Shown here: positions 12,330 to 15,555 of the stretch, piece after piece
How positions within the stretch are numbered: the first letter of the stretch is position 1
How the letters are laid out: each line of letters starts with the position of its first letter
NCBI GenBank assembly: GCA_947166015.1
Contig: CAMVCQ010000003.1
Coordinates: 12-64,011, forward strand
Source of the DNA: an uncultured Lachnospiraceae bacterium
GTDB taxonomy: Bacteria; Bacillota; Clostridia; Lachnospirales; Lachnospiraceae
Reading direction: 5' to 3'
Length of the DNA: 64,000 bases
Notes under the pieces: model-generated
What the model was told of the DNA's origin: nothing
The model's database searches: none
Seen by the model: only the letters and a program-made list of their open reading frames with translations
Translations under genes and position numbers: made by a program

Positions 12330-13415
12330 TTGCAATTCGTAAAAGTTGATGATCTGAAAACAGGCATGCGTTTAGGTAAGCCAATTTACAACAAAAACGG
12401 TGTCCTTTTGTATGACAGGGATACAAAGCTTACCATGCAGGCGATCTACGGCATAAAAAACTTCAACCTGATGGGATTATACATACTCGAGCCTGCTGAG
12501 CCGCTGCCGCCGATGACAGAGGATGATGTGAATTTTGAAAGGTTCCAGACGATGGCAGTCTTCTCAATAAAAGAAGACCTTGACCTGATCGCCATGGGCA
12601 AAAAAGACAAAGGTCTTGACTGGCTGTGCTCACTGGTTATCAAAAACTATTCCGTTCTCGACCACAAGATCAATTTTGTGCAGAGTCTGCGAAGCAGTGA
12701 GGATTTCGTATACAAGCATGTGCTGAATGTATCTATTCTTTCGGCACTCATAGCAGGACAACTCGGTGTAAAAGGCGGACGACTCAATATGATCATAAAA
12801 GCGTCCGTACTTCACGATATAGGTGCACTGAGATTAAATGAGGTTCCGGATGCGGCAGATGTTGATCCGGAAGTGAGACGCGTTATCAAATCCAATACAA
12901 ATGATATACTAAACCGCTATATGGATCTGGATGCTGACATAGCAAAGCTTGTTACACAGTATCAGGAATTATACACAAGAGAAGCAGACGGAGAAATCCC
13001 TGATTCGCTGAAAGCAAATGTCAATGCAAACATCCTTTTTGTAGCGGACACTTACGACCGTCTGACTGCAATGAAATCGGCATCGGAGCCGACATCAGAG
13101 GTCCTCGCGATAAGGCACCTTCTCGACAACGAGGATAAATACGATCCGATGATCGTAAACGCTCTGATAAAAGCGATAAACATCCTATATCCGGGTGTGT
13201 GTGTCGAGCTTTCAAACGGACAAAAAGGACTTGTCATCCGTGGAAACGACGATGCGATATTTGAGCCTATGGTTCTTGACTTCAGGACCAACGCTCTTTA
13301 CGATCTGTCACTTCCTTCAGTCAAAAAAGAAGTGCACATCGTAGATGTGATGAAAACTATGGATAACAGGATTCAGCTTGACAAGGATCTGCTCAATCAG
13401 TTTGCCCCCGCGTGA
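12330..13415 (+). CDS. Degenerate HD-GYP domain protein
   Basis: TTG start behind GGAGGGG; has LHDIG and VADTYD but lacks the HHE and GYP motifs. Confidence 0.75.
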   Translation: MQFVKVDDLKTGMRLGKPIYNKNGVLLYDRDTKLTMQAIYGIKNFNLMGLYILEPAEPLPPMTEDDVNFERFQTMAVFSIKEDLDLIAMGKKDKGLDWLCSLVIKNYSVLDHKINFVQSLRSSEDFVYKHVLNVSILSALIAGQLGVKGGRLNMIIKASVLHDIGALRLNEVPDAADVDPEVRRVIKSNTNDILNRYMDLDADIAKLVTQYQELYTREADGEIPDSLKANVNANILFVADTYDRLTAMKSASEPTSEVLAIRHLLDNEDKYDPMIVNALIKAINILYPGVCVELSNGQKGLVIRGNDDAIFEPMVLDFRTNALYDLSLPSVKKEVHIVDVMKTMDNRIQLDKDLLNQFAPA

Positions 13416-15555
13416 TATCTATGATCACCGAGGAATTGAATCTCTCAGATATCTGTCTTACTTCATCCTCAGCTAAAACAAATGCTTTTACAAGGTTGGC
13501 GTCGAAATGTTTTCCGGCGCCTTCTTTTATTATGTCCATAGCCTTGTCAAAAGGCATACCTTCTTTGTAGCTTCGTTTGGATACAAGGGCATCAAACACA
13601 TCCGCTATAGCCATGATCCTCGCCGATAACGGTATCTCTTCGCCTTTTAATCCGGTAGGATATCCTGTTCCGTCCCATTTTTCATGGTGATAGAGCGCAA
13701 GGTTTCTCGCCTCTGCCAGGTACCCGGTATCCGGAACCAATTCTATAGCGCGGTCAATGATCTGCGCTCCCACGGTCGTATGCTCTTTCATAATCTTGAA
13801 TTCATCATCATCAAGTCTGCCGGGTTTGTTGAGTATCTGGTCCGGTACGTGGATCTTGCCGACATCGTGAAGCGGCGCAGAGTTTCCTACATCGTAGATA
13901 AACTTATCCGTAAGCTGATCTGTATATATCCCGAGCTTTTGCATCTGACGCATGATAAGCCTTGCGTACTCCGCTGTTTTGCGAACATGGTCTCCGGTAC
14001 ACTTATCCCGGCTCTCAACGATATCCGCCAAAGTCATGATCAGTCCACTCTGCATGTTTGCTATGGTCTCTGTTTTTCTCTGGAGGTCAAGGGCAAACTC
14101 GAGGTTATCCTCGGTCATTTTTACAAATGCCGTATACAGATGCTCTATCTCATCACCCGTGTATATGCCGAGTCGTCTGATCCTCTCGACACTGTCTTCC
14201 ACATCCTCTTCACTGTCATAAACGAAGTTTGACGCACTCATCGCCATCGTGTTTATCGGAAGGATTATGTGGTACTCCGATAACCATATGGATACCGCCA
14301 GGATCAGCACAAAAATGCCCAGAAACAGCGCGATAAGCTTCGCCAAAAATGAGTACATGTTATTTCTGATCTCATTCATATTTATATCCGCGCAGGCATA
14401 GCATACGCAGTTTCCGTTTTTGTCATACACAGGAGAGTACACCGTCAAAAGCCATCCATAGGCTCCATCCGATATCACAGGCTCTATTTCTTTGCCCGCC
14501 AAAAGGTCAGGGATATATTTTTGAAAATCTGCCTCAAACGGGATAACTGTCCCGGGGGGATTCCCATCATCTTCATCGGTATGCGGATCTATCACCGCGT
14601 GACAACCGTCCTCCATGATCTTGTATATATAGACGTATTCGATTTTCGGCGCCGACTCCCTGAGTGCTATGAGTTTTTCCTCTGCTTCACTGTAGCCGGC
14701 GCTTGCCCTTCCTTCACTTATGTATTCATCAACCTTTTCCGGATCTATCATTTGTCCTGCCATGGACGCAACACCTGTCGCAAGGACTTTTTGCTCCTCG
14801 ACGCTGTCGTTTTTGTACAGCATGAGGCTTATAGTTATACAGGCCACAGCTACAGCAAGGAGTGAAGGTATGATCAATATCAGAAGCTTGGTCCTGAGCG
14901 GGATCACCCTTGATCTTATTTTGTCCAGTGATTCCTTGACTTCTTTGGTCAGGGGCTTTTGTCTCCAGCCTTTGTAATTCACCTTGTTTTTGATCTTTTC
15001 GGGAATCAGGTTTGCAAGGAGCAAAACCGGGATAAATGAAACCGCCTTGTCGGCTACATCTATGATAATGTCAGCGGCAAGCTGCGCTCCCCATATCCCA
15101 AAGCTGAAATTGTCCCGGAATCCTTTTGCCAGATCAGCAGATATGCCCTCGCTCGCAAAACCATACAGAAAAATAGTCAGTACGGAGCTTAGCGCACCGC
15201 CGATGATGCCCATACCGATCACGGAAAGAAGTATCTGAACCGGTTTTTTGTACCATACTTTTTTGGCAAAATACGCCATGTATGTCGCGATCAGAACATT
15301 GATAAATCCATAGTATACCGAAGCATCATCGAAAAAGCTTTTCATCACATTTGAAAAAAGCCCGACAATAATGCCCGGCAAAAAGCCGCCGAAAACGGCA
15401 GCTATCATTGTTCCTATAGTATCCAAAAACAGCATAATGCCTGTGGATGATGCTATATAACCACAGATGAAATTGATAGAAATACCGATAAATACAACAA
15501 CAAACAACCAGACAACAGATGTCTTTTCTTTGTTCCCCCTATTGATTAGTCCCAT
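13393..15555 (-). CDS. Membrane HD-GYP phosphodiesterase (S-component-like N-terminus, extracellular Cache-like domain, HAMP)
   Basis: Intact HVRKT, LHDVGK, HHEKWDGTGYP and IADVFDAL..KRSYK motifs; multi-TM N-terminus. Confidence 0.88.
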   Translation of the reverse strand: MGLINRGNKEKTSVVWLFVVVFIGISINFICGYIASSTGIMLFLDTIGTMIAAVFGGFLPGIIVGLFSNVMKSFFDDASVYYGFINVLIATYMAYFAKKVWYKKPVQILLSVIGMGIIGGALSSVLTIFLYGFASEGISADLAKGFRDNFSFGIWGAQLAADIIIDVADKAVSFIPVLLLANLIPEKIKNKVNYKGWRQKPLTKEVKESLDKIRSRVIPLRTKLLILIIPSLLAVAVACITISLMLYKNDSVEEQKVLATGVASMAGQMIDPEKVDEYISEGRASAGYSEAEEKLIALRESAPKIEYVYIYKIMEDGCHAVIDPHTDEDDGNPPGTVIPFEADFQKYIPDLLAGKEIEPVISDGAYGWLLTVYSPVYDKNGNCVCYACADINMNEIRNNMYSFLAKLIALFLGIFVLILAVSIWLSEYHIILPINTMAMSASNFVYDSEEDVEDSVERIRRLGIYTGDEIEHLYTAFVKMTEDNLEFALDLQRKTETIANMQSGLIMTLADIVESRDKCTGDHVRKTAEYARLIMRQMQKLGIYTDQLTDKFIYDVGNSAPLHDVGKIHVPDQILNKPGRLDDDEFKIMKEHTTVGAQIIDRAIELVPDTGYLAEARNLALYHHEKWDGTGYPTGLKGEEIPLSARIMAIADVFDALVSKRSYKEGMPFDKAMDIIKEGAGKHFDANLVKAFVLAEDEVRQISERFNSSVIIDITRGQTD

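Follow-up and report, generated by a model that had tools for sequence, protein, structure and literature searches.

A transporter-type S-component module, a Cache-like sensor, and an HD-GYP domain combined in one predicted membrane receptor of an uncultured Lachnospiraceae bacterium

We analyzed a 64,000-nucleotide stretch of DNA (the window) from an uncultured Lachnospiraceae bacterium (GenBank assembly GCA_947166015.1, contig CAMVCQ010000003.1, positions 12 to 64,011 of the forward strand). One of its genes, at 13393..15555 on the minus strand, encodes a 720-amino-acid protein whose N-terminal ~185 residues, as judged from profile alignments, are clearly homologous from end to end to genuine energy-coupling factor (ECF) S-components of the QrtT/CD3073 clade. 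This module is followed by a second sensor domain, modeled between two transmembrane (TM) helices, by a HAMP-like segment, and by a C-terminal HD-GYP domain. Our best explanation, which we hold with moderate confidence, is that the protein is a polytopic HD-GYP-class phosphodiesterase of cyclic di-GMP (c-di-GMP) with an activity set by a composite sensor cassette.

The coding sequence was a single uninterrupted open reading frame (ORF) of 720 codons. A protein of the same length at 98% identity is known from other assemblies, and the full-length protein had more than 1,200 relatives. Among the best 120 of these, nearly all were ~700 to 730 amino acids long, with identities of mostly 49 to 57%, and those with a named source, from Lachnospiraceae, Blautia, and other Clostridia, were mostly labeled "HD domain-containing protein." Given the 98% twin and the relatives of similar length, the ORF does not reflect a frameshift, a read-through, or an assembly artifact. 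An earlier reading of this DNA, made from the letters without database searches (the sequence-only reading), had placed an ECF-like N terminus, an extracellular sensor, and an HD-GYP domain in one protein; all three were present in the intact ORF, and the two strings it had quoted, LFLDTIGTMIAAVFGGFLPGIIVG and DVADKAVS, were found at residues 42 to 65 and 166 to 173. The sole confident Pfam domain of the protein was the C-terminal HD-GYP. The parts are as follows.

13393..15555, minus strand: whole ORF, 720 amino acids, ATG start, predicted membrane HD-GYP phosphodiesterase with a composite sensor
15001..15516, minus strand: predicted S-component-fold membrane module, residues ~14 to 185 (NF045596, AlphaFold2, Foldseek, hhalign)
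14893..15000, minus strand: basic cytoplasmic linker, residues 186 to 221 (alignment, charge count)
14815..14892, minus strand: TM7, residues ~222 to 247 (hydropathy peak at 224 to 242; long helix in the AlphaFold2 model)
14341..14814, minus strand: extracytoplasmic single-Cache/PDC-like domain, residues ~248 to 405 (AlphaFold2 with a pLDDT of 85, Foldseek)
14272..14340, minus strand: TM8, residues ~406 to 428 (hydropathy peak at 407 to 425; AlphaFold2 model)
14044..14271, minus strand: HAMP-like helical linker or signaling helix, residues ~429 to 504 (weak Pfam HAMP match, conserved P433, TGDEIE.LY, WalK model 9a5d)
13456..14043, minus strand: HD-GYP catalytic domain, residues ~505 to 700 (HD_5, 4r8z, 4mcw, 5z7c)

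Run alone against Pfam and NCBIfam, residues 1 to 216 matched NF045596 (NCBIfam, "CD3073 family putative ECF transporter S component") at 64.7 bits with an E value of 8e-18, over positions 4 to 173 of the 174 in the profile. Alignments were prepared for the sensor-module family, for 13 standalone S-components, and for four bona fide 5TMR-LYT domains. In hhalign, the sensor-module family aligned with the standalone S-components at a probability of 99.9% (E 1.9e-34) over 181 columns, covering the whole S-component. Both shared the motifs IN in helix 1, LP.(Y/F)LD.IGT, TN, and DK in helix 6. Residues N28, D45, G48, G57, P60, N69, D169, and K170 were invariant within the module family. The linker at residues 186 to 221 carried a conserved GW.Q.PL motif (W197, Q199, P201, L202) and 6.3 Lys plus Arg per sequence.

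The module is predicted to adopt the six-helix S-component fold. An AlphaFold2 model of residues 1 to 215 built with 40 homologues (predicted local distance difference test score [pLDDT] 87, predicted TM-score [pTM] 0.81) had helices at residues 14 to 38, 47 to 73, 79 to 98, 105 to 131, 140 to 150 (short), and 154 to 183, so that the five or six TM helices of the sequence-only reading came out as six, with helix 5 a short one. In a Foldseek search of the PDB, the first nine matches were all ECF S-components, including RibU (3p5n), ThiT (4tkr), TmRibU (5kbw, 5kc0, and 5kc4), chain S of 4hzu, and BioY (4dve), with a probability of 0.57 for BioY, 0.98 to 1.0 for the other eight, and at most 0.12 beyond these; the target-normalized TM-scores of the nine were 0.46 to 0.58. 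Only the fold search succeeded here; a module profile run on PDB sequences gave no relevant match. The sequence-only reading had proposed the S-component likeness and had suggested profile comparison and structure prediction as checks, and both bore it out.

The S-component fold is also that of the 5TMR-LYT receptors, and the module could merely be a divergent sensor of that type (LytS/YpdA/BtsS), with nothing beyond that family. Partipilo and Slotboom (2024, Commun Biol 7:610, PMC11109136) described the reuse of the S-component fold as a receptor in the 5TMR-LYT kinases YpdA, BtsS, LytS, and KinB; they linked the two groups by predicted fold only and reported a lack of both sequence similarity and a phylogeny that could be resolved. 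The Pfam model of this domain (PF07694) did give subthreshold matches, at 16.1 bits (E 0.0087) with the whole protein and 21.5 bits (E 1.9e-4) with the module alone, as well as a faint match on one homologue (P0026) and E values below 1e-3 in 2 of 65 long relatives. However, the gathering cutoff is 24.6 bits, and the real LytS-type protein of the same genome scored 104 bits. Against the 5TMR-LYT alignment, which holds four sequences only and includes that LytS-type protein, hhalign gave the sensor-module family a probability of 1.1% (E 0.05, 57 columns). Additionally, the module had no H0 helix, with 13 residues before helix 1 and at most 11 further codons open upstream, and no NxR motif between H1 and H2, where the loop reads SSTGIMLFLDT; in the 5TMR-LYT alignment, the N and the R of this motif never varied. 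Two further TM helices followed the module, rather than a direct continuation into the cytoplasm. Pfam MASE and 7TM-HD models had no match to the module at an E value of ≤10. The sequence-only reading would have given up the S-component assignment had 5TM-LytS, MASE, or 7TM-HD matched better, and the comparison went the other way (99.9% versus 1.1%; 64.7 versus 21.5 bits). Since the S-component match is far better than any of these, the sequence places the module among the S-components, and an origin as a divergent 5TMR-LYT domain is highly improbable.

A homology search with residues 1 to 200 returned just five proteins, mostly partial. Thus, standalone relatives were sought through NF045596 in 300 whole genomes of the same class, with inspection of 12-kb contexts. 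The matches formed a continuum, with true CD3073 proteins at 245 to 259 bits (184 to 198 amino acids), other standalone proteins mostly at 80 to 120 bits (184 to 243 amino acids), and long fused ORFs at 53 to 82 bits (573 to 1,242 amino acids). The intermediate standalone genes occurred in two arrangements: in the first, the S-component gene was followed by genes for CbiQ/EcfT, two ABC ATPases (EcfA and EcfA'), and an inosine/uridine-type nucleoside hydrolase, and in the second, it lay between a nucleoside hydrolase gene and a gene for a ~230-amino-acid CxxxCxxC protein. The second order is that of queK-qrtT-queL, the operon for queuosine salvage in Clostridioides difficile, whose product QrtT has experimental support as an ECF S-component (PMC11477304; PMC11130926). 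Because of these EcfT/EcfA and queK-qrtT-queL-type contexts, the nearest sequence relatives of the module are genuine S-components that apparently specialize in modified nucleobases or nucleosides. At four CD3073 genes in other genomes (loci L016, L018, L019, and L021), an overlapping gene of ~163 amino acids, alike in size, lay downstream; the one that was scanned, at L016, resembles a 2-thiouracil desulfurase (PF04463, 25 bits, below the cutoff of 34.7). This suggests that CD3073-family S-components import thiolated pyrimidines. Literature searches on CD3073 found nothing.

When residues 1 to 200 were used in a sensitive search of 1.84 billion cluster representatives, 802 clusters matched at an E value of ≤1e-3 and 331 at ≤1e-10. 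Among the 150 clusters listed, the module was always N-terminal, in proteins of roughly 130 to 1,045 amino acids; many of the short proteins were truncated gene calls, and those tested nested inside fused clades of the tree. The outputs in the 65 matches of at least 380 amino acids were HD-GYP (30 proteins), HisKA-HATPase-REC hybrid kinases (9), GGDEF (1), and a nucleotide cyclase (1). By hydropathy scan, exactly two TM segments followed the module in 53 of the 65, usually ~155 to 175 residues apart, which corresponds to the Cache domain, and a few had a loop of 14 to 45 residues between the two TM segments and are Cache-less variants. The Cache domain was homologous across output classes. What is conserved, therefore, is a unit of S-module, linker, and two TM helices that usually includes the Cache domain, with different outputs exchanged behind it. 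The survey of domain architecture that the sequence-only reading had suggested thus revealed one N-terminal cassette ahead of HD-GYP, hybrid kinase, GGDEF, and cyclase outputs.

In a maximum-likelihood tree, 15 standalone S-components formed one clade (SH-aLRT support of 100) apart from the fused modules, with the window module among the latter. The genome itself held a second fused paralogue, no standalone copy, and one EcfT. This paralogue (G000:C7:46244-49741, locus L002) comprised an S-module, TM-Cache-TM, and HD-GYP in at least 689 amino acids, was open at the locus end, and adjoined a STAS-domain/kinase-like gene. Full-length relatives were found in Blautia, Ruminococcus, Oscillospiraceae, Butyrivibrio, Pseudobutyrivibrio, and the cultured Lachnospiraceae NK4A179 and YSD2013; Pseudobutyrivibrio ruminis and Butyrivibrio fibrisolvens 16/4 are further cultured carriers. 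In other phyla, full-length homologues with 38 to 44% identity were present in several Fibrobacter succinogenes/Fibrobacter sp. metagenome-assembled genomes and in one from Fretibacterium (loci L061, L064, L065 to L067, L070, L071, and L073). This gut and rumen distribution across phyla suggests lateral spread.

Counting back from the invariant Asn of helix 1, the sixth and the second residue were taken as the docking motif, equated with the AxxxA motif of ThiT and RibU by location only. In the standalone relatives, these positions held A, P, S, or G and then mostly A (e.g., ALGIAIN), while in the sensors they were mostly L, V, I, or F; the window protein had F22 and S26. Both positions were small in 7 to 14% of the sensors versus 8 of the 15 standalone proteins. 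This change parallels the AxxxA loss that has been tied to the inability of the 5TMR kinases and MreD to bind EcfT (PMC11109136). The module is also fused to 535 further residues, unlike standalone S-components of ~160 to 240 amino acids, which end after helix 6. As the module is fused, has bulky residues at the helix 1 positions, and heads many signaling proteins, it is most probably part of a receptor and not a transporter subunit, and we infer that it no longer serves transport.

The opposite case is that the module still works as an S-component on a shared EcfAA'T, importing its substrate or reporting occupancy, so that the protein would be a bifunctional transceptor or "trigger transporter." The clear homology to S-components with dedicated ECF modules and the EcfT encoded in the same genome speak for this, the flexible ~35-residue linker past helix 6 could permit some rotation, and one small residue, S26, remains at the motif. 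However, the positions equivalent to AxxxA are mostly bulky in the sensors, the same change that marks loss of EcfT docking in PMC11109136, and the ~90-degree toppling of S-components fits poorly with a TM-hairpin tether in a likely dimeric receptor. Furthermore, ecf genes were not clustered with the gene, either in the window or in two relatives. We regard a working transporter subunit as quite improbable.

The middle of the protein is, as modeled, a single-Cache/PDC extracytoplasmic sensor between TM7 and TM8. Hydrophobic segments at residues 224 to 242 and 407 to 425 flanked a domain of ~165 residues, and an AlphaFold2 model of residues 210 to 505 built with 25 homologues (pLDDT 85) began with the long TM7 helix and a pair of helices, continued with a sheet of five strands into which a helix was inserted, and ended with the long TM8 helix and another pair of helices; the secondary structure of the Cache region was alpha-alpha-beta2-alpha-beta3. 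Foldseek matched this region at a probability of about 1.0 to the periplasmic domains of DcuS (3by8, TMt 0.69) and CitA, the sCache domain of a formate chemoreceptor (8py0), KinD, and WalK, and the best match was the full-length WalK model 9a5d (TM-Cache-TM-HAMP; query-normalized TM-score 0.62). The assignment follows from these matches, and the second, extracellular sensor that the sequence-only reading had placed between two TM helices stands. Profile searches gave less: the Pfam sCache and dCache models had no match at an E value of ≤10, with PAS_3 alone appearing (E 0.07), a DcuS/MalK NCBIfam match was weak (E 0.064), and the profile of the middle region found a single PDB sequence, a spurious ABC permease. 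Within residues 318 to 386 (window 14398 to 14604, minus strand), the Cache domain carried DGCH (C318, H319) and CxC (C383, C385). These four residues were fully or almost fully conserved among close family members and 51 to 72% conserved among wider relatives, and they may form a metal site, a redox site, or disulfides; because of the lower conservation beyond the close family, the cluster was left out of our model.

The segment after TM8 is HAMP-like, with weak support from Pfam (HAMP, E 0.16, 12.8 bits versus a cutoff of 25). It had an AS1 proline (P433) after TM8 and an AS2-type start, TGDEIEHL, conserved in the family as TGDEIE.LY; the connector is longer than usual. For the HAMP of the sequence-only reading, the conserved proline, the AS2-type start, and the superposition on WalK speak in favor, but the Pfam match remained subthreshold.

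The HD-GYP domain, which the sequence-only reading had called intact, is very probably catalytically active, to judge from its motifs. Residues 509 to 688 matched HD_5 (Pfam, E 8e-35, 120.6 bits), and the domain aligned to PA4781 (4r8z, E 9e-43), PmGH (4mcw, E 1e-38), and V-cGAP3 (5z7c, E 1e-35). LHDVGK and YHHEKWDGTGYP were retained in the alignments to 4r8z and 4mcw, with the HD and HHEKWDGTGYP motifs intact, and it is on this retention that the predicted activity rests. The protein probably degrades c-di-GMP. The same genome had about 19 GGDEF-type matches.

We propose the following mechanism. The S-module would be an intramembrane small-molecule receptor, with its ligand in a membrane-embedded cavity. 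Once bound, it would shift against TM7 and TM8 as a covalently attached "co-sensor," and this shift would bias both the dimeric HD-GYP domain and the helices of the HAMP-like segment. A second, extracytoplasmic input would come from the Cache domain, and the output would be a change in c-di-GMP hydrolysis by the HD-GYP domain, probably feeding motility or sessility decisions. As the S-module is joined to TM7 and not directly to the output, it would most likely act laterally on the TM7/TM8-HAMP helices, by analogy with the free transporters DctA and DcuB, which modulate DcuS-type sensors. The polar invariants N28, D45, N69, and D169/K170 are common to the module family and its transporter relatives. 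The micronutrient ligand and the two-input logic put forward in the sequence-only reading, any influence of a ligand on activity, and the connection to flagella are inferred.

Several observations weigh against this account. The NF045596 score of 64.7 bits is far below the curated cutoff of 180 bits, and the Pfam model PF12822 (ECF_trnsprt) matched the module at 15 bits (E 0.026; gathering cutoff of 30.7 bits) and reached an E value below 1e-3 in 3 of the 65 long relatives. The Foldseek E values were modest (0.03 to 0.3), with TM-scores around 0.5. In the model, helix 5 has no more than 11 residues, and the loop between H3 and H4 is rich in Lys and Arg (2.7 per sequence), which violates the positive-inside rule, since this loop is extracellular in the six-TM S-component topology. 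The substrate of the HD-GYP domain could be another cyclic dinucleotide, as the cGAMP-specific V-cGAP3 scored nearly as well. Finally, instead of sensing a ligand, the module could serve as a scaffold for structure or dimerization, like MreD.

Given the basic loop and the short helix 5, any exact topology of the module is tentative. The loop reads KKVWYKK at residues 99 to 104 (window 15244 to 15261, minus strand) and is strongly basic in the sensor family and in standalone S-components alike; the N-terminal tail and the linker after H6 are also rich in Lys and Arg. Charge bias gave no consistent topology, as this loop conflicts with a plain six-TM arrangement that has both termini inside.

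If the S-fold module were a ligand-less membrane scaffold or dimerization platform, the Cache domain would be the only real sensor. MreD sets the precedent, having the S-component fold without transport or ligand function and a proposed scaffold role (PMC11109136), and the Cache domain is conserved together with the module across output classes. Yet the Cache-less variants retain the module and the TM hairpin, which makes the module the only candidate sensor there, and N28, D45, N69, and D169/K170, common to ligand-binding S-components, lie in or near predicted membrane helices. The module is also paired with many outputs, as sensor domains are. A scaffold role is thus rather doubtful, and we continue to favor an S-module that senses a ligand.

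A bolder proposal is that the module keeps the ligand class of its relatives, so that modified nucleobases or nucleosides derived from tRNA would be measured in the membrane and translated into c-di-GMP, kinase, or cyclase signaling; in a variant, the module would dock to EcfAA'T and report transport flux. The proposal builds on the ligands of QrtT, which handles queuosine, queuine, and preQ1, on the thiouracil desulfurase-like neighbor, and on the nucleoside hydrolase neighbors of the standalone relatives. Although it must be called unlikely as a whole, nucleobase sensing or flux reporting, if true, would make this the first bacterial "transceptor" to connect a micronutrient to a second messenger and to have a transporter ancestry that can be traced.

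The surroundings of the gene in the window were as follows.

4825-5307: FliS
5399-6826: flagellin
6866-9853, minus strand: FliK-like protein of 995 amino acids (DUF6240, E 9e-93, plus a weak FliK hook-length C-terminal match)
9967-12255: secreted S8 subtilase with a Big_2 domain
12330..13415, plus strand: convergent HD-domain protein of 361 amino acids (PF01966, E 6e-5; HD_5, E 0.008)
15600-16815, minus strand: DUF4321 membrane protein (87 amino acids) and GH25 lysozyme-like protein (310 amino acids), directly upstream of the HD-GYP gene
16992-17777: short flagellin-like gene, 261 amino acids, TTG start
18492-19741, minus strand: ECF-type sigma factor (175 amino acids) overlapping a DUF4367 membrane protein (244 amino acids)

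The FliK-like protein sits between the flagellin and the S8 subtilase. The sequence-only reading had placed the phosphodiesterase next to flagellar genes, and FliS, two flagellins, and the FliK-like gene are indeed nearby, but the adjacency was not conserved in the two homologues checked. A conserved neighborhood was considered and rejected, the two homologues lying in unrelated contexts, murB-X-rapZ-whiA and beside an Fe-dependent repressor. A link to motility is therefore plausible from general c-di-GMP biology, and conserved synteny gives it no support. An Rfam scan of the window found no c-di-GMP riboswitch or other element at the gathering score. The 3' end of the 361-amino-acid HD protein gene overlaps that of the phosphodiesterase gene by 23 nucleotides; the protein has the HD motif LHDIGAL and lacks HHE...GYP, and it may be a degenerate HD-GYP protein acting as a receptor rather than an enzyme, with a functional link to the phosphodiesterase unproven. 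The sigma factor and the DUF4367 protein look like a sigma/anti-sigma pair.

The reuse of the S-component fold as a receptor is already published for the 5TMR kinases (PMC11109136), and the general concept is not new. New here is that the fold has a second receptor lineage, distinct in sequence from the first, which lacks H0, is coupled to a TM-Cache-TM unit, and has clear homology to working transporter subunits. We found no paper describing this family, and literature searches for S-component plus HD-GYP gave nothing. The family forms a sequence-level bridge between ECF S-components and bacterial receptors: the receptor module aligns with S-components still found in ecfT/ecfA and queuosine-salvage-type operons, yet is wired to HD-GYP, kinase, GGDEF, and cyclase outputs. 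How a transporter subunit turned into a receptor can thereby be tested directly, through the residues that were lost (the helix 1 docking motif) and kept (N28, D45, and D169/K170). The family also defines a large sensor cassette of gut and rumen Bacillota, Fibrobacter, and Synergistota for which there is no Pfam model. For a class of c-di-GMP enzymes found in abundant commensals, the search for ligands is thereby narrowed to compounds that resemble vitamins or nucleobases.

Compared with known systems, the window module shares end-to-end homology, signature residues, and the predicted six-helix fold with the QrtT/CD3073-type S-components (NF045596). Those proteins are standalone, with 180 to 240 amino acids; their genes neighbor those for EcfT/EcfA or nucleoside salvage, and the residues at their helix 1 motif are mostly still small, whereas the window module is fused to signaling domains and its family has mostly lost these residues. 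Like the window family, the 5TMR-LYT receptors have an S-component-fold membrane domain N-terminal to signaling outputs, have lost the helix 1 AxxxA docking motif, and carry modular outputs that include c-di-GMP enzymes and hybrid kinases. However, they have an H0 helix (seven TM helices in total) and an NxR motif, both missing from the window family, and they run straight into the cytoplasm, whereas a TM hairpin comes after the window module, usually with an sCache domain inside. Strong sequence similarity to true S-components is kept by the window module and not by the 5TMR kinases, and the HD-GYP output of the window family is absent from the main text and two supplementary files of that study (PMC11109136).

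The middle part of the protein superposes on DcuS, CitA, and the WalK model and resembles sensors of the TM-Cache(PDC)-TM-HAMP type, in which the output is a histidine kinase and not, as here, an HD-GYP domain. DcuS with its co-sensors DctA and DcuB is a precedent for a transporter-type membrane protein modulating such a sensor; unlike in the DcuS system, the transporter-derived element of the window protein is covalently fused ahead of the sensor. The catalytic domain is 40 to 50% similar to those of PA4781, PmGH, and V-cGAP3 and has every signature motif in common with them, but its input is an eight-helix membrane sensor, while the inputs of those three enzymes are, to judge from their names, soluble REC or GAF-type domains.

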